Shown piece after piece: positions 6,700-64,000 of a DNA stretch of 64,000 bases. The translations under genes were made by a program, and so were the position numbers. Location: NCBI GenBank assembly GCA_000004985.1, contig GG738919.1; one strand, given 5' to 3'. The notes below the pieces were generated by a model. That model had not been told where the DNA came from, searched no databases, and worked only from the letters and a program-made list of their open reading frames with translations. Positions within the stretch are counted from its first letter, which is position 1. Every line of letters begins with the position of its first letter. The DNA comes from Naegleria gruberi (Eukaryota).

Positions 6700-6772
6700 G
6701 CCCGTCTAGCTCAGTCGGTAGAGCGCAAGGCTCTTAACCTTGTGGTCGTGGGTTCGACCCCCACGGTGGGCG
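6700..6772 (+). tRNA. tRNA-Lys (anticodon CTT)
   Basis: 73 nt, GCCCGTCTAGCTCAGTCGGTAGAGCGCAAGGCTCTTAACCTTGTGGTCGTGGGTTCGACCCCCACGGTGGGCG. It folds as a cloverleaf: a 7-bp acceptor stem with two G-T wobble pairs, A-box TAGCTCAGTCGG, an anticodon loop CT-CTT-AA, and B-box GGTTCGACC. It is near-identical in architecture to eukaryotic cytosolic tRNA-Lys(CTT). No intron. Confidence 0.9.
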
Positions 6773-14371: not shown

Positions 14372-14421
14372 NNNNNNNNNNNNNNNNNNNNNNNNNNNNN
14401 NNNNNNNNNNNNNNNNNNNNN
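14372..14421. other. assembly gap (50 N)
   Basis: Run of N. Confidence 1.
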
Positions 14422-30220: not shown

Positions 30221-33200
30221 TTAATGTTGTGGTGAGGAATTTTGTTGGCTAATAGTTTGGAAACTTTGCTTTCTCTTTACAAAATCAGTAATGGCATCAT
30301 TGAGCTTGGTAATAATTCGAACCTTTTCGTTTGGTCTATTCATGACATCGTACTCAACTGTGAATTTACGAGCAATGGCTGAAATTTGGAATTTGCTATT
30401 GTTAGATCCGAAATCCATTGGATGAACAGTTAAATCACCCAAACTCAAAACAAATCTTGCTTCATATCGATCCTTCTTCTTTTCTTCCATTATTCCCATA
30501 ACGTCCACATTGTCAGATTTGTCAATTCCATTGGCTCCTTCTGCTGTTGCAATTTTCATAGCAGCAGCTCCACTTGGAGTACCTCCCAATTCTGAAGTGG
30601 AGGCACTCACTGATGGAGTAGGTACATTTACTGTTGAGGTAATGTTTGGTTGAGAGTTGGCCTTAACAGACAACTTTCTTCTAACTCGAGATAATTTTCC
30701 ATCCTCTTCTTGTGTATTTTCAGATTCTCTAACAGCATGAATAAATAAATCGTTGAATAAGAAAACGACACATTCCTCATTGACATGAGTGTCATAGGTA
30801 GATCTCAACTTGTCAAATTCACAAATATATCTACGTTGAGGTTGAATTAAATCTGTCAGTCCTGATAATCTATCTGCCACACTCTTCATACGATAGAAAT
30901 ATTGACGTTCACGAATCTTATTATTCAAGAAGGTGGCAACTTCTTCAGTGATGGAAATTGCATTCACCAAATTACCGAAATCTGGATGTTCAGGATTCTT
31001 GGTGTGTTTCAACAAACCCTTCAATAGGAGAATATATCTTGGAATACGTTGGATAGGCTTGATCAAGAAACCTTGAAGTTGTTCACCCTTTGAGAATGGA
31101 TCCTTTCTTCTAATGTAGAGATAATTTCTAAATCTTGGATTATCCTTATGTTTAGAATAAGTTTCAATAGCCATTTCATATTTTGTTGAGAAGGTGGTAT
31201 ACAATTTGAAAGTTTGATGGAGTTTGATGAAAATATCGGCAATCTTTTGATCCTTGTGCCATTCATTAACACGTTCTTCTAAATCTGTTACGAGAATCTT
31301 GTGCAATTTGTAAATTCCCAATAAACCACCAAAGATCTTAGACTTGTCATCTTCTGAAATGAGATTAGGCAAATATTTCAATAGTGGATAATAGTACAAT
31401 TCTATAATCTTGGCCATAGAAGTGACGTAGGCTCTTTCAGTGTCGAGAATTTCCTTTGCCAAATTTTCTCTTTCCAAAATATCCTTTTCATTTTCCAATT
31501 GTTTGACATCTTCTTGTTTTTCGGTAGATGTCTTGGTTTCAGTTGCGCTATTATCAGAGGTCTTGTTGGATTCAATATTTGGACTTGTCTCTGTTGTGAC
31601 AGTTTCAAGATCTTCCAATACATCTACAGGAGATCCCTTGTGGCTCTTCTTTCCAATCATGAAACTACCAAAACCAATATTTGACAACTCTTCATCACTG
31701 TCATAGTCACTATCACTATCACTATCAGCATGTTGCATTTGGTCAATGACAGATTTGATTAAAAGACCACACTTGCCAGAGGATGCTGAACTTGCTCCAC
31801 TAATTCTCATATTTTCATTCAATCTAATCTTGTTATGTTCCAAGTGAGTGAGCAATAAATCTTGTAGCATGTGACAAATTACCAATCTTTGCATGAGGGC
31901 AGGTTCCTTTCCACTCTTCTTTTTGATGATTTCCTTTTCCTCTTCAGTGAGTTTGTTATTCACATTCACAGAAACAAAAGTGGAATCAACAATAGTTGAA
32001 AGACCCTTACATTTCAACAAGATTTGATTCAATGTCGATTCATTTCCTTCACTTCCCATCTTGATAATGGAAATGTATGGCTCTGGTTCAGATGCAGAAC
32101 CGGTGGAGTTGGCACTAATACCATTTGATTCGTACCATTCGACAATATCATCTAATTTGGTTTGTTCCTTCTTTTTCTTTCTTTGGAGTGAAAGACTTTC
32201 CAATTTGCCCAAACTGTGCCAAACAGGTGTACCAGTTGAGGAGGATGCTGTCTTTCCGAAATTAGGAGCTGAGAACTTGGATTCGATTTGATTGGCTGTG
32301 ACGAGGTAAATCTTTGGTCTCATATTTCTATTGATTGGATCCTTTGATTGTTTTGGATCGTGCTTTGCTAATAAATCAACTAAAAGTGTAAAAACTTCCT
32401 CATATCCTCCATCATTATCTGGTTTCTTAATCTTATTGGTGATGAGATCAATAACTGAATAGTAATATTCCAAATCTTCATTATCAATAATAATTTCAAC
32501 AGATTTCTTTGTAAAGATACCAACAGTCATCCTATCTGCTGGACGTAACTTGAAGAGAATATGTAAATATCTGAGCACAATTTCAATGGCAGAACCCAAT
32601 CTATTATCATATGCTGTGAATTGAGAATAATCTTCACCCTTTTCACTTTGTTTCAAACTCTTGCCTGCTGGTTTAAAAACAGGAAGAGAAGGAATCATAT
32701 CTTGTGAAGACATATTTCTCGAAACATCCACAAAGATATAGTGGTGAATGCCAGTATTTGGAGTGGCTTTAAACAAGTGACCACTTGGAGAGAAGATGAA
32801 ACCATTTTCTTTGGCTGGGAATCTTTCAGCTAGTAATGAAACTTCCTCCAAATAATCCAATGCACTACAATCCAAAACTTGGTGAGAGACGTGTCTCTTA
32901 CAATATTCGAGTGGTGTATTGGAAGTAGAGTTTTGGTCCAATTTTTGAACTCTACACAAGTTGAATTGACGCATTTCCTCATTGGACATGCAGGCCTTCT
33001 TACATGGATCAACAAATCCACACAAGGACCAGAATTTTTCATGTTTCAATTCATCCATTGGTTCACATTTCATAGTAGAGTGCTTACGACCTGTTGCCAT
33101 CAAACTCAATTCACCATTATATGGACAATCTTCCTCACCATTATCAGATAAAGAATCATCGAAATTATCGGTAATAATCATGGAATCTTCTCTTCCATAT

Positions 33201-45464: not shown

Positions 45465-47483
45465 GTTGTTTTTTTTTTGATTGTAGCGTTTGACAGTTCG
45501 CTGTCGTTATTCTCTCAAAAGGGATAATTCGTAGCGTACAAATAACTTGACCCTTCGTGCTTCCCTCCATTACAACATGCCAAATCTCATTTTCACAAAA
45601 CCTTTCCTTTTTCAATAAAGTAAAAGGCCTTGGCCAATCTTTCTGTTTACAACATCAAGGTTCACAAATTTACAGTAAAATTTATTGAGTTTTGAATTAA
45701 ATAAAAACAACAGTAGATTATGTAGATTATGATTGTATTGGTGGTTGAAGGAAAATGAAAATTGTAATCCAAAGGATTTTTTGGTTCATGAAAATCATTG
45801 TTGTGCATAGTCCTTAACAAGATATTACACATCATTTGGTGATGGTGAAAGGGTTATTCAAAGAATCTATTGTATTTTAGACAATATTCAAAGGATTGCA
45901 ATGTGGTGGTGTTAAAACAATAATTGAAGGAGAACCAAATAATAGTAATGCGCTTTTGTTTGAATAGATGTGGTTTTATAGAGTAAAAAGACTACAGCAC
46001 CACAGGTTCCCAAGTTGTCTCCAACCTCAGTACTGATGTGGCTCGACGATGCTTAACTTCTCAAATCGGACGGGATGAGGTGCATTCATCGTGATATGGC
46101 CGTAGCCATTCATTAATTGAAAATTTGGGAAATAAACAAAGTTATAAGGGATTCTGGGGAAGGAAATTAGAACGAAAAGGAATGTTGGAAGGCTTGTTGA
46201 ATATCTTGGCCAACTTTTGAAGTAAAAGTACAAGATGAATGTTATTGTTAGATTACATTATAGAGATGTATTTATTCATGTATTGATGAAGAATGATAAA
46301 GTAGATGATGAATAATTAATGTTAGGAAGCATGTAATTCTAACTTTTCAAACTCTGGACAAAAGTTGAAAAACATTGCAAGAACATCCTTACTGATGTGG
46401 TACAATAATAAATCTTTGCCCTCCTCTTGAAATTGAACAGGTTTTCCAAGGTGTTTTAGCTTGTGGAAAATAATTACCTATTCTTCTCCAACTCTTCATA
46501 CACTTGATGGAAAGTTTTGAAACTTTCTGGAGTGATGCTAGTGAACATTTAGAGCATACCTATGATGTTTTTGTTGCTATAGATGGTGTTCTTGATGATG
46601 AAAATATTAAAATTAATAAATTGATGAAAATATTCTGGCAGTAACAGAATCGCATCTATTTGATTGTTATATTCATGTTGATTACTAATAGATGATGTGA
46701 GTTTTAATTGTCCACTTTAACAAAATTTTCCATCAATTTAATCATTACCTTTTAAAATTTGTATTTCATTGTAAAATCCAATAAAATCTATTCATATACA
46801 CTCTATATGATCCAATCATGTTGTGTTGAAAATGGTTTTCCCAGTCATGAAGAATTGACTTTGAAAATCATCAATGATGTAAATTGTTGATGAAATATTT
46901 TCTTTAATTTTTTCATCATCAAAACCCTTTTCAATCAAAAAACTCGTCAATAATTTTTTCATCACAATCGCAACAAAAGAATTGTCTTGATAGAAATTAT
47001 TTATTATTTCTATGGATACTCAATAAGAAGTTAAATTTGCATTGTTTGGATAATTATTCTTCACATTCATAGATACAAGATGAGACTTTCCACAATGATA
47101 CTATCGATAATTAACAACATTTTGATATCTGTTGATGAATTTAAATTATGTTGCAACATGATGAAGAAAATGAGAAATTATAATTTTGATGAAAATCTTG
47201 TTGCAAGAAAATCCTTGGATACGCTTGAATATCATCTATTAATCCTATTCTATCATAGAAGATGTTATCATGCCATCAAACAATTATTACAATTTTTAAT
47301 AATTAAAAATTGCTTTCAATCTCCTCAATTCCATTTACAACACAATTATCCTTCATCACCATCTCCTCTCCACCGTCCACTCCCTCCACTCACAAAATTA
47401 TTCTTCATAACTCCATCAATTGCTTCCACAATTCATCTCATCCTATTTTCTCTAAAATTTTAATTTAAAAAAATCAAAGAAAA

Positions 47484-50993: not shown

Positions 50994-52325
50994 ATGGAAA
51001 GAACAATAATTATATTGGATGATTCTTTGGGAAGTGAGGCTCTTAAAGAACGTTATCTTGATGAACGTTTTGAATGGAAGTGTGATAGGTGTTTATTGAA
51101 TTCTTTGGATTTTTCTAACGTTTATTATTCAATGGATGAGTTTCTTAGATTAATAGACAATTTGAAAGATAATCGATTCTTTTCGGAAATCATCTTGAAG
51201 GCTGTCTCTTATGTTCCTTATGTTGTTTCTAAATGCTCTCCAAACATGATGAAACCATACTATGTAAGAGAGTTGATCAGTAGAAATGTTTCATGTTACA
51301 ACTTTTTGGAATTGCCTTATTATTCCAATGACAGGGAATGCCTTTTGAAAATAATAGCCAATACTAATTATTGTCAGATATTGGGTCAAGCTAGTGAAGA
51401 GTTGCAAAACGACAAGGCTTTCATTATGGAAGCCATTGAATGGAATTACAAGTGTTACTATTATTTGAAGGAAAGAATGAGAAAGGATAGAGATATTGCC
51501 TTGTTAGTAGTCTCAAAGGAAGGATACATGTTGGAAGATTCTGATATCAAGCACTGCTTTAGTGCAGATAAGGAGGTTGTTAAAGCTGCTGTCATGAGTT
51601 CACATTCGGCAATCATGTTTGCCAGTTCAAAATTGAAGGAAGATCGTGAATTTTTCAAGAATGATATTCTGCCTTTTGATCCTTCACTATTTAGATATGC
51701 TCACTTACAATTGAGAAGTGATATTACTTATATTTCAGAATTAATTGTTAACTTTCCGCAATGTATTCAGTATGCTATTAGTAATATTCAAGGAGATATT
51801 GAATATGTTTTGGAACTCATCAAAATTAATCCACTAGTTGTATTGTATGCAAATTGGAAGGAATTATCGACAGAATATGCTATCAAGAAGATTACACAAC
51901 ACGACCTTCCTGATTCAGTAATTAGCTCAATCTATGAAGAACTAGATGACGATTATGCTCTTGATAGTTTTGTAATGAGGAGCATACAAAGAGATCCAAA
52001 AACATTGCAATTGTTCCATCTACACAAAGGTTGTTTGCAAGTTGTTTCACATGCCGTCCAAATTGATGGTCTCACTTTGGAATATGCCGAGCGTCGTATT
52101 AGAATGGAGAAGGATATTGTAAGGAAGGCTTGCAAACAAAATCCAAACTCCTTCAAGTTTGCTGATCCAACTCTAAGGCAAGATTTGGAGTTTGTCTCTG
52201 AATTGATTGAAAAGGTACATCCAACTATAGTTTTTCATGCTTCCTTGCTTCCAAAAATTCAAAGAGATGTGATTAAAAAAACATTACTCAATAACCCAAA
52301 ACTCCTTAAGGAAGTCAACTGGTGA
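50994..52325 (+). CDS. repeat protein resembling DUF4116-type tandem helical repeats
   Basis: 443 aa. It has recurring ~35-aa units with D.(E/D)(F/Y)(V/I)LE.I..NP..(L/F)(Q/K)(Y/F)A...L(R/K).D.(E/D)...A-like periodicity (e.g. DKAFIMEAIEWNYKCYYYLKERMRKDRDIALLVV; DKEVVKAAVMSSHSAIMFASSKLKEDREFF). The family assignment is by pattern only. Confidence 0.5.
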   Translation: MERTIIILDDSLGSEALKERYLDERFEWKCDRCLLNSLDFSNVYYSMDEFLRLIDNLKDNRFFSEIILKAVSYVPYVVSKCSPNMMKPYYVRELISRNVSCYNFLELPYYSNDRECLLKIIANTNYCQILGQASEELQNDKAFIMEAIEWNYKCYYYLKERMRKDRDIALLVVSKEGYMLEDSDIKHCFSADKEVVKAAVMSSHSAIMFASSKLKEDREFFKNDILPFDPSLFRYAHLQLRSDITYISELIVNFPQCIQYAISNIQGDIEYVLELIKINPLVVLYANWKELSTEYAIKKITQHDLPDSVISSIYEELDDDYALDSFVMRSIQRDPKTLQLFHLHKGCLQVVSHAVQIDGLTLEYAERRIRMEKDIVRKACKQNPNSFKFADPTLRQDLEFVSELIEKVHPTIVFHASLLPKIQRDVIKKTLLNNPKLLKEVNW

Positions 52326-54846: not shown

Positions 54847-55677
54847 TTATTCTTGTGACATGATCTTAATGAGCTCGTATACTGTAATGGAAAGAGCTGA
54901 AGTACTAGACATGAAAATAGTATTTGGAAGAATTCCCTTAGTGAAACCTTTCCATCCCTCTTGTTTCCTCAAGTCACGTATCAATTTCCAAACTGATGTT
55001 TTCTCTCCGTCTGTCTGGAGCCTAGTTTTAATAACATCCATAGGATTGAATAAAACTGCACATGATAAACCTGCAGCAAATCCACCCAATGACGATGATA
55101 AAATCTGATGTTTGAAGAGGTGGTTTTTCTTCTCTTCTTCACCTAGTTGTTTAAAATAGAAATTTCTAATGAGGCCATACTGAGTCCACCAAACAGCACT
55201 CTCTGGGGCATACTTTGCCATGGTCATTCCATAGCCTCTGAATAGTCCTTTAAATCCTTCTTTGTGTACGATATCCTTGACAATGTGAGTGACGGATTGG
55301 TCGTGTGAAATCATTCTCCTCTGTGAAATGACTTCAAACGGAACCACCAACACATTGGCAACAACATCAGCACTAAATCCAGCCAATAGATATCTGGTTG
55401 TTAAATTCATTCGATCCACTAGTTGTTGATTTGATAATTCATAAGTGCTCATATACAAATTTTCCGATGTTAAACCTCCAGCCCAACTCACTAGAAAACC
55501 TCTATAAAGAGCTCTGAATGATGATTGTTTCACAAGATTTCTTAAAATTGATAATTGAGTCAAATGACCATCTCTGTGAACTTGTTGATGTGTTTTAATT
55601 AAATCAAAAGGATAGAAAACTACTTGTGTTGCTGTTGATGCTATAAATCCATAGGCATAATATTTGAACTTGTTCAT
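54847..55677 (-). CDS. mitochondrial carrier family (SLC25) protein
   Basis: 276 aa with three carrier repeats and the Px[D/E]xx[K/R] signatures PFDLIKTHQQ, PFEVISQRRM and PMDVIKTRLQ. Confidence 0.8.
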   Translation of the reverse strand: MNKFKYYAYGFIASTATQVVFYPFDLIKTHQQVHRDGHLTQLSILRNLVKQSSFRALYRGFLVSWAGGLTSENLYMSTYELSNQQLVDRMNLTTRYLLAGFSADVVANVLVVPFEVISQRRMISHDQSVTHIVKDIVHKEGFKGLFRGYGMTMAKYAPESAVWWTQYGLIRNFYFKQLGEEEKKNHLFKHQILSSSLGGFAAGLSCAVLFNPMDVIKTRLQTDGEKTSVWKLIRDLRKQEGWKGFTKGILPNTIFMSSTSALSITVYELIKIMSQE

Positions 55678-55981
55678 ATCATTCCAAGTGACTTCGTAAC
55701 GAGGTTTTCCACCAACTACATCCTCCGATGATGCATTATTATTTAAATCAGTAGTAGTAAGTATCCTTGTTATTTTCTATTCCTATTGTTCCATCAATAT
55801 TATCCTTATTATCCATAGTCATGTTGATTTAATTTTTTAAATTGATTGTATTGAGAAATTAAGTGTTGATAAAAATTGGTTCGTCCGAGCACAGTTTCAT
55901 CCAATCAATTTCATTTGTGTGAGATTGGATGCTGTAGTGATGATGTGAAGGCTTTTTTTCGCTCCTCTATTTTTTTCAGTG

Positions 55982-56746
55982 ATGACGATTGATGAAGACA
56001 TGATTACTAAAGATTTGATGAAATTTACAATAAAAATGAATACACAAGTGCTCTCCAAATACATTGAATCAAAGGATGAAGATGAACAATTGTTGATTTT
56101 GTATCAGGTGTTTAAAAATTATGATTTGGACGGAAATAATGCGATTGATAAGAGGGAATTGATTCCATTCTTTATGGATTTTTTGAAGGGTTTGTACTTG
56201 TGATGAATTTAATTATAGTTGATCATCATGTGATTAATATTAATTGATAATATATGGAAAATGTGGAATATATTGTGATGATGAATAATCATACTAGTAT
56301 TGGGAATGGATCCATCTTCGATTACTCCGGATGATGTCAAGAAATTTATGAGTGGAATTGATTCGGATGGAAATGGTACAATATCATTTGTAGAATTTAC
56401 TAATTGGTTTAAAGATGCAGTGTTAGGATTGATTCCTCCATCAAAGAAAAAGAAGAAGAAGAGAACTCTTCTCGATTCATATCTTGCTGAAAAGAATACC
56501 ACCAAACAAGTTGAAGTTTTACAATCAATTTTCAGAAAGTACGATACTAATGTGGATGGTAAAATAGATAGAGATGAATTTGATCAATTCTTAACAGATT
56601 TATTCAAACAATTTGAATTGGGAATACCAAGTGGAGATCATGTAACATACTTCTTCGATGTAATTGATACTGACAAATCTGGTGGAATAACCATTAACGA
56701 AATAGATGTTTGGTTACGAGAGAATATTGAAAAGTTCACTCATTAA
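55982..56746 (+). CDS. EF-hand calcium-binding protein, two exons: join(55982..56189, 56298..56746)
   Basis: Four EF-hand loops (DLDGNNAIDKREL; DSDGNGTISFVEF; DTNVDGKIDRDEF; DTDKSGGITINEI). Donor G|GTTTGT at 56190 and acceptor ATACTAG| at 56297 give a 108-nt intron (phase 1) that joins the 74-aa and 148-aa ORFs in frame (...FFMDFLK-V-LGMDPSS...). The first ATG is at 55982. Confidence 0.7.
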
Positions 56747-57401
56747 TTTATTGTAATTTTATTGTAAATTGTACAACAAAAAATTAATTTGTTATAATAA
56801 TTTATATTGATTTTGTTTTGAGTTGAGCCTAATTAAATAATGTATTTGCTGAAGAGAAATTAACTCAATTCTGATTTAGATCAGTTTCAACCAATATTTA
56901 TATAATCATAAATTTTCAAACACCCTGATCCAATTACAAAGGGAGCTGTCTTTGTTGTCTTTGTGAAGGCGAGCAAGTTCAGTAGCATTTACAGAATGAG
57001 AGATTAAAGGTATTAGACCAGGATTGAATTTGGCTTGTAAATTTCCTCCATTTTTCCATTCTTTCTGATCTTTCAGATAGATTTGCAATGATGGATTTCG
57101 AGTGAATTCAAAAGCTTCTCTTTAGGATTTTTCAATTGTGAACAATAAATCTCTCGGAAAAACAACTTGTTTCGGAATAATGACAACTGGCATTTGCTCA
57201 CTAGATGATTGACCACCAGAATTTTGTCCAAGAATTTTGATGATCAAAATTATTTTCTCTATTTAAATGTTCTTTTGCAATAATCGACACGACTTCTTGT
57301 GGCAATACAAACAGAGAGGAATCATTTTTTTTAATTAATAATTGTAATAATTATTCGAAATGTTTAGTTTATAATTGTTAAAAGTGGAATCTAAGAATAA
57401 A

Positions 57402-57932
57402 CTACATTTTGGAAAGGTCTCTTTCGAATACTCTTTCGCATAACATTCTTCCATTAAATCTGCTCACTCTATTAGTTTGATAGGTGAGATAATTTCTCGA
57501 ATCTCTCAATTCGAAACCATTATTTCCCAACAATTCCCACAAGGCATGAGTACTATCAGTCATGGCATATGGAACTGCATACGAATCATCAGTTTGACTC
57601 ATATCCCTCGCCCAAATCAAATTTAATTCGAAATCTTCAAAGACAACTTGAGCAATTTGTTGACCTTCCAAATATTCTGAATTATTTGGATAAGAAACTC
57701 CAAATAATTCCTTAAAAACTGATGGAGCAATTCTCAATGCTTGGAAAACATCTTTTGGTCCAATAATTTCTCTCACATTAATGTACTGTTTCGTTGACTT
57801 TTTTGCGTGAACCTTATTGACCTCTCCTCCAATCACTGGAATGGAACTGTTTATTCCAGGAGGTGGTGGTGGAGTAAATCCTTGAGAAGTACTAATAATG
57901 CTGTTATTGCTTGGTGGAGGTGGTGGAGGCAT
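57402..57932 (-). CDS. hypothetical protein with Pro-rich N-terminus
   Basis: 176-aa ORF (MPPPPPPSNN...TPPPPPG...) followed by a globular-looking segment. No family recognised. It may continue into the small ORF 56906..57088 via splicing (not established). Confidence 0.4.
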   Translation of the reverse strand: MPPPPPPSNNSIISTSQGFTPPPPPGINSSIPVIGGEVNKVHAKKSTKQYINVREIIGPKDVFQALRIAPSVFKELFGVSYPNNSEYLEGQQIAQVVFEDFELNLIWARDMSQTDDSYAVPYAMTDSTHALWELLGNNGFELRDSRNYLTYQTNRVSRFNGRMLCERVFERDLSKM

Positions 57933-59783
57933 TTGTTGGTTGACTTGTTTTTTTGAAGTTGGTTTTGGGTTGTGTCATGTTATTGGACTCGTATTTATAG
58001 AGTTTAGTTTATCATGATAACATGGTACAGTTGGTAAAATGGAATCAGAAATCACGGTTAAATGAACCCCAAGGTTCTTTTGTTACTTTGAGTTGAACTG
58101 GAAAGAAGAAGAAAAGAGGTGCAACACGGCAATCTATCCTACTATTGCAATGAATCCTGTTACTATAAAAGGTGCACTACTTTTATTTCTATTGTTTTTC
58201 ACAATATCTTGTTTTTGTACATGTAGTACATCTGTATTCAACATGAATGAGTTCCCGCCAAAAAACAATTAAAATGTTATATTGCAAATTAATAAAAACA
58301 AGATTGAGAACAAGTAATTATACTAATGGGTATTAAAGCTCAGGGACTGTGTTATAGGCGATAAAAACTCGCATGAAGACCCAGGCAGTTAAATTCGTTG
58401 GTATGAACCTTCCAGGCGAAAAATACTTCTAGGATAGATTCCATTAAAAATATCCATCCCTAAAAGTCTGCTATATTAGGGATGGAATTAGACCTTGCAC
58501 AAATAGAATCCAATTAGACAAAACTTATCTGTTAAGGTAGGAATTATCATTAAAATGATAAGTCTCATTAAACAAGCTATATTAGCATGAATTTAGAGCC
58601 ATTATGTGTAATATCTTGTTTTATGAACCTATTCAATATCTACTAGGATTTTATGAATTATCAAGTATTAAAGAAGTATATTTAATTGGTAAATAATCAC
58701 AGATTAGTTTTTAAAAAATTAAAATCTCCAATTCAATGAATTTTACACAATAAATTAATGTGTGATACAAAAGTACAATGAAATTTATTATTTTGATGTT
58801 TTGACTTGGTGAACATCTGGTTAGGCTGAGAACTTGCATGTTTTGAGAGAAATTTAAGATCTTTATGATCTCATCGAAATAAAACGAAATATTTGATATG
58901 GTACCATCTACAATAATACTAATAACAGTTTATTAATGTTTCAAGAAGTTTGGCTATATACTTTTGGCATGAATCATGATTTGTAAGCATGAATATTCCG
59001 AAGTTGGTAAAACAACAAAATGATGAAAAACTGATAATAAATATATTGTTTATTATGTATTTGAATAGTAGTTATGAAAGACATTTTCCAAGTTGGTGAA
59101 GTACATGTTGAGTTATGGTCCATGTACATGTTGAAAATATACATGAACCTATCATGATGATAACCAATAGGAAAATGTTCGGAAGTGATTTTACCTGATG
59201 GAATCGACCATGCTGAACAATACTAGATTGAAAGTTTTCCAAATTACCATATGAATCTGGCAGTGATGATGATTTTAGTGAAAATATTGAATTTCACTAA
59301 AATATTACTATTATCAGATTTATTTCCACAAATATTACTATTATAATGATGATAAATAACAATGATGATGGTTGGAAGTTGTTCCGATGATGGTTTACCA
59401 ACTTGAATTTTTCCCAAGTGAAAATTAAATTCCAAATTTATAATCACAATCCAATAATAAAAACTACTACCAGTAATACTATTAGGATGATGTTGAGATG
59501 ATGATGTGAAAGTTTGGTGGATTCATGGGGTGAAATCACTCTGAAAATCACCAAAGTGTTCCCAATGTGTGTTTGGGCTGAAATATTTTTTCTTAATGGT
59601 GGAAAATAATGGAACGTGTATTTGTTCGGTGTTATTAATACATACAAGGCAACACCAAGAACTTTTGTCCATCAAATAAGCACCCTACTATTTTCGCCTA
59701 GACATTTTAGGCTATTTTTTTTGGCCTAAATATTTTTTGCCTGTTTTTCAGGCGAAAAAAGTAGCCTAGAACACACAGTAAAG

Positions 59784-60572
59784 ATGCTTCTATCAAATGT
59801 TGCTGAGTTGGCCAATGCTGTTGGCTCGGATTCGTCCGTTGGTTTATTCGGATATCCAATAATGATTGTTTCACTTATTGGAATGTTGGGTTCTTTCGTC
59901 TTGTGGTATGCAAGAATGATTTTTGGCAGTTTATTGTTTAGATGGATGTTTTATCAATTAAATTTGTCTGATACTTGCATTGAATATGCTTGGTTTAGTT
60001 TGTGGTTTTCACACCATCCTTATACCAAAAATGGAAGTACTCATGTTAAACCATTCCAAAAAACAACCAAACTTAGAGTTAATAGAACAAATGAACCAAA
60101 GGAAGAAGACTCAATTGCCACTTCCAATATTTCAGAAATGATTTCCAATTTGAAAGTCAACTTTGTTCCAAGTTATGGAATTCACATCTTGTACAGAAAT
60201 TCTGAACCACTCATAGTTTCCATTTCCATTAATACCAATCAAAATAATAATGCCTACAACACAGAGGAGAAAACTCGTGAAGATATTGTCATTTGGAAAC
60301 CAAGACATTTCCTCACTGATTACCTTATCAAATTTTTATTTCCATGTCAAGATGGAGTGAACAATTGTAATTCAGTAATTGATATGTTGGAAAAGGCAGG
60401 AGTTGCCAAAGAGTTCCTCTCCTTTAATCCAACCTATCCTCAATCTATTGAGAATGCCTACTCTGTATTTCGTGAATTATTGTGTGACTGTTTCTATGTC
60501 CATACTCTCATGACCAGAGAAAAGACCACAATTTACACACCTTATTTCTCCCAATGGTTTTGGCATCTTTCA
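59784..60572 (+). CDS. hypothetical membrane protein, 5' part (truncated by assembly gap)
   Basis: ATG at 59784. Two N-terminal hydrophobic helices. The ORF stays open for 263 codons until the N-run begins at 60573. The long ORFs reported across 60508..62914 are artefacts of translating N. Confidence 0.4.
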
Positions 60573-62856
60573 NNNNNNNNNNNNNNNNNNNNNNNNNNNN
60601 NNNNNNNNNNNNNNNNNNNNNNNNNNNNNNNNNNNNNNNNNNNNNNNNNNNNNNNNNNNNNNNNNNNNNNNNNNNNNNNNNNNNNNNNNNNNNNNNNNNN
60701 NNNNNNNNNNNNNNNNNNNNNNNNNNNNNNNNNNNNNNNNNNNNNNNNNNNNNNNNNNNNNNNNNNNNNNNNNNNNNNNNNNNNNNNNNNNNNNNNNNNN
60801 NNNNNNNNNNNNNNNNNNNNNNNNNNNNNNNNNNNNNNNNNNNNNNNNNNNNNNNNNNNNNNNNNNNNNNNNNNNNNNNNNNNNNNNNNNNNNNNNNNNN
60901 NNNNNNNNNNNNNNNNNNNNNNNNNNNNNNNNNNNNNNNNNNNNNNNNNNNNNNNNNNNNNNNNNNNNNNNNNNNNNNNNNNNNNNNNNNNNNNNNNNNN
61001 NNNNNNNNNNNNNNNNNNNNNNNNNNNNNNNNNNNNNNNNNNNNNNNNNNNNNNNNNNNNNNNNNNNNNNNNNNNNNNNNNNNNNNNNNNNNNNNNNNNN
61101 NNNNNNNNNNNNNNNNNNNNNNNNNNNNNNNNNNNNNNNNNNNNNNNNNNNNNNNNNNNNNNNNNNNNNNNNNNNNNNNNNNNNNNNNNNNNNNNNNNNN
61201 NNNNNNNNNNNNNNNNNNNNNNNNNNNNNNNNNNNNNNNNNNNNNNNNNNNNNNNNNNNNNNNNNNNNNNNNNNNNNNNNNNNNNNNNNNNNNNNNNNNN
61301 NNNNNNNNNNNNNNNNNNNNNNNNNNNNNNNNNNNNNNNNNNNNNNNNNNNNNNNNNNNNNNNNNNNNNNNNNNNNNNNNNNNNNNNNNNNNNNNNNNNN
61401 NNNNNNNNNNNNNNNNNNNNNNNNNNNNNNNNNNNNNNNNNNNNNNNNNNNNNNNNNNNNNNNNNNNNNNNNNNNNNNNNNNNNNNNNNNNNNNNNNNNN
61501 NNNNNNNNNNNNNNNNNNNNNNNNNNNNNNNNNNNNNNNNNNNNNNNNNNNNNNNNNNNNNNNNNNNNNNNNNNNNNNNNNNNNNNNNNNNNNNNNNNNN
61601 NNNNNNNNNNNNNNNNNNNNNNNNNNNNNNNNNNNNNNNNNNNNNNNNNNNNNNNNNNNNNNNNNNNNNNNNNNNNNNNNNNNNNNNNNNNNNNNNNNNN
61701 NNNNNNNNNNNNNNNNNNNNNNNNNNNNNNNNNNNNNNNNNNNNNNNNNNNNNNNNNNNNNNNNNNNNNNNNNNNNNNNNNNNNNNNNNNNNNNNNNNNN
61801 NNNNNNNNNNNNNNNNNNNNNNNNNNNNNNNNNNNNNNNNNNNNNNNNNNNNNNNNNNNNNNNNNNNNNNNNNNNNNNNNNNNNNNNNNNNNNNNNNNNN
61901 NNNNNNNNNNNNNNNNNNNNNNNNNNNNNNNNNNNNNNNNNNNNNNNNNNNNNNNNNNNNNNNNNNNNNNNNNNNNNNNNNNNNNNNNNNNNNNNNNNNN
62001 NNNNNNNNNNNNNNNNNNNNNNNNNNNNNNNNNNNNNNNNNNNNNNNNNNNNNNNNNNNNNNNNNNNNNNNNNNNNNNNNNNNNNNNNNNNNNNNNNNNN
62101 NNNNNNNNNNNNNNNNNNNNNNNNNNNNNNNNNNNNNNNNNNNNNNNNNNNNNNNNNNNNNNNNNNNNNNNNNNNNNNNNNNNNNNNNNNNNNNNNNNNN
62201 NNNNNNNNNNNNNNNNNNNNNNNNNNNNNNNNNNNNNNNNNNNNNNNNNNNNNNNNNNNNNNNNNNNNNNNNNNNNNNNNNNNNNNNNNNNNNNNNNNNN
62301 NNNNNNNNNNNNNNNNNNNNNNNNNNNNNNNNNNNNNNNNNNNNNNNNNNNNNNNNNNNNNNNNNNNNNNNNNNNNNNNNNNNNNNNNNNNNNNNNNNNN
62401 NNNNNNNNNNNNNNNNNNNNNNNNNNNNNNNNNNNNNNNNNNNNNNNNNNNNNNNNNNNNNNNNNNNNNNNNNNNNNNNNNNNNNNNNNNNNNNNNNNNN
62501 NNNNNNNNNNNNNNNNNNNNNNNNNNNNNNNNNNNNNNNNNNNNNNNNNNNNNNNNNNNNNNNNNNNNNNNNNNNNNNNNNNNNNNNNNNNNNNNNNNNN
62601 NNNNNNNNNNNNNNNNNNNNNNNNNNNNNNNNNNNNNNNNNNNNNNNNNNNNNNNNNNNNNNNNNNNNNNNNNNNNNNNNNNNNNNNNNNNNNNNNNNNN
62701 NNNNNNNNNNNNNNNNNNNNNNNNNNNNNNNNNNNNNNNNNNNNNNNNNNNNNNNNNNNNNNNNNNNNNNNNNNNNNNNNNNNNNNNNNNNNNNNNNNNN
62801 NNNNNNNNNNNNNNNNNNNNNNNNNNNNNNNNNNNNNNNNNNNNNNNNNNNNNNNN
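60573..62856. other. assembly gap (2,284 N)
   Basis: Run of N. Confidence 1.
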
Positions 62857-63340
62857 CAATGTTAGTATAGGTCAGTTGACAAGTTGAACAGCAAATATCC
62901 TGAAATGATACCAAAGTATTTGAAATTGATATACATTGTTATTAACATGATTTATAAGGTGATATATTGATTTGAAATGAATTAGAAATGTTTTCATTGA
63001 TATTCTAATTGTTTAATGGGTTGGGTTTGGAAACGTGTGTTTTCAAGCTATTCGAAAGTAGTAACGATTTCGATATTCCGTTAGTTTGCGTCACTTTGCG
63101 GACGGACTTATATTCAATCAATTTGGTTGTCATTCATATTGATGCGTAGAATTTTTGAGAGTATTTTTGAATGTACGTTATTTTTATCTACGCATGAATG
63201 AAAAGTACAACAATGATCAAGAGGAATTGAGTCATGAGTATGATACTTTCTCAGATTGTTCTACGCATCAAGAGTATTCGATTCAGGATTCTATTCATAT
63301 ATGATATTTGTTATAAATATATTGAATTGGATGAGATGGA

Positions 63341-63358
63341 GTTGGGTTTGGGTTTGGG
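63341..63358 (+). repeat. interstitial telomere-like repeat (GGGTTT x3) in the subtelomeric region
   Basis: GTTGGGTTTGGGTTTGGGAG, 250 nt proximal to the main array. Another partial copy GGGTTGGGTTTGG lies at about 63020..63033. Confidence 0.5.
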
Positions 63359-63609
63359 AGACTGCGGGCTAATTACATTACCCAGATTTGTTGTTTAAAT
63401 ATTGGGATATTGAATTTTTCAGATATCGTAATAGACTTCAATTACTACATTATCGTACAGAAATTCAGTTCTAATTCACTGAACTCATTGAATGGGAGCT
63501 TTTCAAAAACAGGTCATTTTTCAGTAAGGTAAAAAAAATGACATTATTGACATTTTTACCTGTCTACATCAATATTTGAATAAATTGAATGCTGTTTGCC
63601 AATTTTAGG

Positions 63610-64000
63610 TTGGGTTTGGGTTTTGGGTTTGGGTTTGGGTTTGGGTTTGGGTTTGGGTTTGGGTTTGGGTTTGGGTTTGGGTTTGGGTTTGGGTTTGGGT
63701 TTGGGTTTGGGTTTGGGTTTGGGTTTGGGTTTGGGTTTGGGTTTGGGTTTGGGTTTGGGTTTGGGTTTGGGTTTGGGTTTGGGTTTGGGTTTGGGTTTGG
63801 GTTTGGGTTTGGGTTTGGGTTTGGGTTTGGGTTTGGGTTTGGGTTTGGGTTTGGGTTTGGGTTTGGGTTTGGGTTTGGGTTTGGGTTTGGGTTTGGGTTT
63901 GGGTTTGGGTTTGGGTTTGGGTTTGGGTTTGGGTTTGGGTTTGGGTTTGGGTTTGGGTTTGGGTTTGGGTTTGGGTTTGGGTTTGGGTTTGGGTTTGAGT
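63610..64000 (+). repeat. telomere-like tandem hexamer array (GGGTTT)n, about 65 copies, running to the window end
   Basis: Perfect GGGTTT repeats from about 63610 to 64000. There is one GGGTTTT variant near the proximal end and a GAGT variant in the last unit. The G-rich strand is the + strand, oriented 5' to 3' toward the window edge, as expected for a right-hand chromosome terminus. Confidence 0.85.

Follow-up and report, generated by a model that had tools for sequence, protein, structure and literature searches.

Genes and gap at the scaffold end

The window, by which is meant the whole 64,000-nt stretch of DNA that was analysed, has a GC content of about 34%, and long open reading frames (ORFs) in the standard genetic code span about 76% of its first 55.7 kb. 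The protein encoded at 50994-52325 is identical across 443 of 443 amino acids to Naegleria gruberi EFC37351.1 / XP_002670095.1 (NAEGRDRAFT_74986), and the DNA is that of the nuclear genome of N. gruberi NEG-M. Two further ORFs have no exact match, probably due to differing gene models. A preliminary sequence-only reading of the window had rightly concluded from the standard code that the organism is not a ciliate, in agreement with the long standard-code ORFs and with a protein identical to that of a heterolobosean, the amoeboflagellate N. gruberi.

Several features lie far from the scaffold end. A single, dispersed 5S rRNA gene (45989-46107, minus strand; Rfam, 105 bits) is surrounded by protein-coding genes, with the putative telomere about 18 kb away; the large rRNA genes of Naegleria are carried on a circular plasmid (PMC13182076). 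A tRNA-Lys (CTT) gene is found at 6700-6772 on the plus strand, and another assembly gap, of just 50 N, at 14372-14421. Between 38669 and 44131 (plus strand) three ORFs, with lengths of 631, 531 and 654 amino acids, abut or overlap one another, the second with TmcB-type TPR repeats and the third with PAS and adenylate/guanylate cyclase domains. All three probably belong to a single large gene for a membrane cyclase, interrupted by short introns or changes of frame.

The features of the last part of the window are arranged as follows.

About 55979-56746: EF-hand gene (Pfam EF-hand_7, E = 1e-18)
57402-57932, minus strand: proline-rich ORF of 176 amino acids (from the ORF list)
59784-60572, plus strand: BCS1_N-domain gene (BCS1-like AAA ATPase), N-terminal 263 amino acids, the most distal recognisable gene (ORF, Pfam)
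60573-62856, no strand: scaffolding gap of 2,284 N (read from the sequence)
62857-63607, no strand: unique AT-rich non-coding subtelomeric sequence of 751 nt, 30.7% GC
63018-63030, plus strand: interstitial telomeric sequence 2, degenerate, GGGTTGGGTTTGG, proximal to the array and in the same orientation
63341-63358, plus strand: interstitial telomeric sequence 1, GTTGGGTTTGGGTTTGGG, proximal to the array and in the same orientation
63608-63997, plus strand: terminal telomere-type array (Tandem Repeats Finder, unit census, 12-mer enrichment)
63994-64000, plus strand: TTTGAGT, an imperfect last unit of 7 bases (read from the sequence)

The last 6 kb had been described as gene-poor, a description that does not hold for a region occupied by the EF-hand gene, the 176-amino-acid ORF and the BCS1_N gene. 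The BCS1_N domain (PF08740) is recognised in the ORF starting at 59784 with E = 2.1e-8 and a score of 34.8 bits (cutoff, 28.1 bits). The 2.3-kb assembly gap is present as had been noted. It had been thought consistent with subtelomeric repeats collapsing in assembly; nothing shows such a collapse, and, because the gap opens inside the BCS1-like gene, a collapsed repeat is not required to account for it. The gap probably conceals the AAA-ATPase half of this gene and not repeats alone.

The non-coding stretch that separates the array from the gap (62857-63607) contains no ORF longer than 54 amino acids, no Rfam match and, the telomere-like tracts apart, no internal repeats. When a larger subtelomeric repeat was sought in the last 8 kb, only these tracts were found to recur, the other families being short chance matches. 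Scanning 55600-64000 with Rfam at a permissive threshold likewise gave just two sub-threshold chance matches.

The TTTGGG array and the tracts in front of it

The array at the edge of the window is nearly perfect. Tandem Repeats Finder recognises a single array at 63610-63997 with a period of 6, 64.5 copies, 99% matches and no indels (score 767), confirming the earlier count of about 65 GGGTTT hexamers in the last ~390 nt. A census of the units gives the order GG, TTGGG, TTTGGG and TTTTGGG, followed by 62 perfect TTTGGG units at 63622-63993; no TTGGGG unit occurs in the array. Upon searching the window with the 12-mer TTTGGGTTTGGG and allowing at most one mismatch, 67 matches were found, compared with 0.46 in dinucleotide shuffles (shuffle maximum 4).

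The plus strand is the G-rich strand of the array, and its 5'-to-3' direction points to the 3' edge of the window, which the array abuts; the outward direction of the G strand had been read correctly. The array ends 3 nt short of the 64,000-nt edge. As the window has a fixed size, such a coincidence is best explained if the edge of the window is also the end of the record. The bases TTTGAGT at 63994-64000 are most simply regarded as low-quality read-end bases at the end of the scaffold.

The degenerate copies that had been noticed 250 and 580 nt further in are the two interstitial tracts, GTTGGGTTTGGGTTTGGG lying 250 nt and GGGTTGGGTTTGG 578 nt proximal to the array. Both share a start with it. 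The 11-mer GTTGGGTTTGG, in which TTTGG follows a short TTGGG unit, opens all three telomere-like tracts. It occurs at exactly three sites in the 64 kb (63020-63030, 63341-63351 and, at the array start, 63609-63619), all on the plus strand and all inside the last 1 kb, whereas 0.03 sites would be expected by chance. The sequences upstream of the three starts are unrelated. The segments between the tracts show no mutual similarity and thus give no evidence for a tandem family of telomere-associated repeats.

In being short, degenerate, in the same orientation as the terminal array and less than 1 kb away from it, the two tracts resemble subtelomeric interstitial telomeric sequences in general, from which they differ in measuring just 13 and 18 nt. 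They would be interstitial relics of a telomere, with earlier events of end healing or recombination as their probable source. The common start may reflect a preferred register in which telomerase initiates, or chance. A more specific proposal, that the three GTTGGGTTTGG starts record successive rounds of chromosome healing in which telomerase began in one fixed register with TTGGG as a short first unit, we consider doubtful. If it were true, the junctions would show the alignment and the template boundaries of the Naegleria telomerase RNA; to our knowledge, no heterolobosean telomerase RNA has yet been identified. Combined with work at the bench, such a fixed register would, for the first time, prove experimentally that a member of Discoba has a telomere unit other than TTAGGG. 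The GTTGGGTTTGG start is also seen at some unrelated TTTGGG ends in metagenomes (L076, L082 and L083 of the scan described below).

The claim that the scaffold ends at a chromosome terminus carrying a telomere-type TTTGGG repeat is supported by the near-perfect array at the edge, the outward G strand and the flanking tracts in the same orientation. The array is very probably the sequenced proximal part of the telomere of an N. gruberi nuclear chromosome.

The published N. gruberi motif and TTTGGG arrays in metagenomes

The sequence-only reading had allowed that the telomere of this lineage might be undescribed. That is not the case: TTTGGG was given for N. gruberi in 2013, from the same assembly (PMC3622300). 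In that survey, TnAmGo-type repeats were sought in 143 genome assemblies and candidates were judged on their position and orientation (Fulneckova et al. 2013, Genome Biol Evol 5:468; PMC3622300). There, TTTGGG is the candidate telomere of N. gruberi, which is counted among the species with a convincing terminal pattern; TTAGGG is the commonest type, the Naegleria motif is called unexpected, and the terminal position is said still to need confirmation by experiments. The recurrence of TTTGGG at other N. gruberi ends is taken here from the same survey (PMC3622300). A search of the literature yielded no Bal31, terminal-restriction-fragment or TRAP data for Naegleria and no reports of its telomerase, TERT or telomerase RNA. 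The word telomere does not occur in the N. fowleri nanopore genome paper or in the 2023 Naegleria pangenome paper.

The array was thus correctly observed, but its motif is already known, having been published as an in-silico candidate. With the motif in the literature since 2013, the observation has little discovery value. What the window adds to the 2013 report is the anatomy of one end, with its 62 perfect units, the proximal variants and the two putative relics that share GTTGGGTTTGG. In practice, the end of the scaffold can be marked as a probable chromosome terminus, and one well-resolved junction between subtelomere and telomere becomes available for N. gruberi.

The 1.14-kb terminal contig is tied to the gene-bearing scaffold solely by the gap of 2,284 N, and it contains no gene that would link it to Naegleria. 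It might accordingly be misplaced or foreign, derived from a chimeric clone or from a contaminant such as the macronuclear end of a ciliate, TTTGGG units being present in the telomeres of Paramecium. The array itself speaks against such a source: Paramecium mixes TTGGGG with TTTGGG, whereas TTGGGG is missing here. In addition, the GC content of the unique part of the contig, 30.7%, is close to the 30.9% of non-ORF DNA elsewhere in the window, and a unique flank with the composition of Naegleria non-coding DNA counts toward the telomere interpretation. The motif was, moreover, found to be the dominant terminal repeat of the N. gruberi assembly in an independent study (PMC3622300). A misplaced or foreign contig is extremely unlikely.

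Whether the motif by itself indicates a telomere can be judged from other DNA. Upon scanning public metagenome contigs for (TTTGGG)6, at least 120 loci (L001-L120) were found. Among the matches listed, 91 of 125 arrays of (TTTGGG)6 or longer are internal, mostly in GC-rich contigs; many of the internal ones come from marine samples, in contigs whose GC content is 55-70%. Internal arrays being so common, a telomere cannot be diagnosed from the motif alone. In one marine contig of 62% GC (L050, Ga0163111_10301227), arrays of the TTAGGG type pass directly into a TTTGGG array near the contig end, so that two telomere-type units are mixed in one subterminal region. Where the listed arrays are terminal, the G strand points outward in 26 and inward in 8 (binomial p = 0.0015). 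This bias depends largely on 13 contigs of a single assembly, JAESGV01; when these are set aside, the listed matches no longer show a significant bias (13 against 8). Among the matches listed there were no environmental Naegleria ends, and comparison with blastn and tblastx revealed no likeness of these to the window except a 5S rRNA match to L022.

The commonness of internal arrays, together with the eight terminal but inward ones and the frequency with which contigs terminate in repeats, would suit a different explanation of the window, in which an assembly break, and not a physical chromosome end, happens to lie at an internal TTTGGG microsatellite or at a large block of interstitial telomeric sequence. 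At 388 nt, however, the N. gruberi array has about three times the length of the longest among the matches listed (133 nt). It is also essentially perfect, with its G strand outward, and is preceded by short tracts in the same orientation, as in a subtelomere; the N. gruberi pattern was furthermore judged terminal in the published survey (PMC3622300). An internal array is very unlikely, and a chromosome end remains the preferred interpretation.

The JAESGV01 assembly (IMG 3300037860) contains at least 13 contigs that end in outward (TTTGGG)n joined directly to unrelated unique sequences. A literature search turned up no publication that refers to its accession.

JAESGV01 contigs with outward (TTTGGG)n: L006, L028, L030, L041, L053, L076, L077, L081, L082, L083 (the same as L121), L101, L114, L119

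These contigs carry ORFs in the standard code (the longest of 1,254 amino acids), a pair of DYW-type PPR genes, a Ty3/gypsy pol and a P4-ATPase gene with apparent introns of about 33 nt. Their source is a eukaryote that appears to use the TTTGGG telomere unit. The DYW-PPR protein has no close relative in 5.8 billion proteins, its best named matches being plant PPRs at 20-25% identity. With named relatives only among plants and at so low an identity, a heterolobosean origin of these contigs is unsupported, and they were left out of the evidence on Naegleria.

Two of these contigs can be aligned with each other (L101, 1-894; L119, 278-1201). The repeat of L101, at 1-108, starts where its copy of an ORF, 76% identical to that of L119, stops. 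This copy breaks off at amino acid 263 of 307, while the ORF is intact in L119. A repeat that starts at the point of truncation indicates that the telomere was added inside coding sequence. The junction suggests chromosome breakage and healing, or else a subtelomeric gene family.

Proposed synthesis of the array and comparison with known telomeres

The structure of the array can be accommodated in a simple model. A telomerase RNA template of about 1.5 copies of CCCAAA, for example CAAACCCAAAC, would specify TTTGGG. Telomerase would then lengthen the G-rich strand at its 3' end, giving rise to a homogeneous array, and end-binding proteins would cap it. The TTGGG and TTTTGGG variants at the inner border would represent an older part of the tract that has escaped resynthesis. 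The 388 nt seen would be a lower bound for the length of the telomere, limited by the Sanger read length and by the assembly. No template candidate of the CCCAAACCC type is present in the 64-kb window, the minus strand having just a mismatched 12-mer at 30438.

The array shares with TnAmGo-type telomeric minisatellites a homogeneous T/G-rich sequence of short tandem units with a block of G, and a G strand that runs 5' to 3' toward the edge. Its closest counterpart is the N. gruberi candidate in PMC3622300. The species, the assembly, the hexamer and the type of evidence, namely position and orientation, are the same, and nothing substantive differs.

The array shares with the TTAGGG telomeres of trypanosomatids, which are likewise Discoba, and of most eukaryotes the length of the unit, the block of three G, the orientation and, presumably, the mode of synthesis. 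TTTGGG differs from TTAGGG by a single substitution, A to T.

In Paramecium, the two units of the telomere, TTGGGG and TTTGGG, are mixed through misreading of the template. This TTGGG(T/G) repeat thus includes the Naegleria unit, and the Paramecium telomeres and the present array have in common hexamers with a G3 block of the kind made by telomerase. The array nevertheless does not belong with ciliate macronuclear telomeres of the Paramecium type: TTGGGG is absent from it, and N. gruberi, a heterolobosean, uses the standard code and has ordinary chromosomes that are dense in genes.
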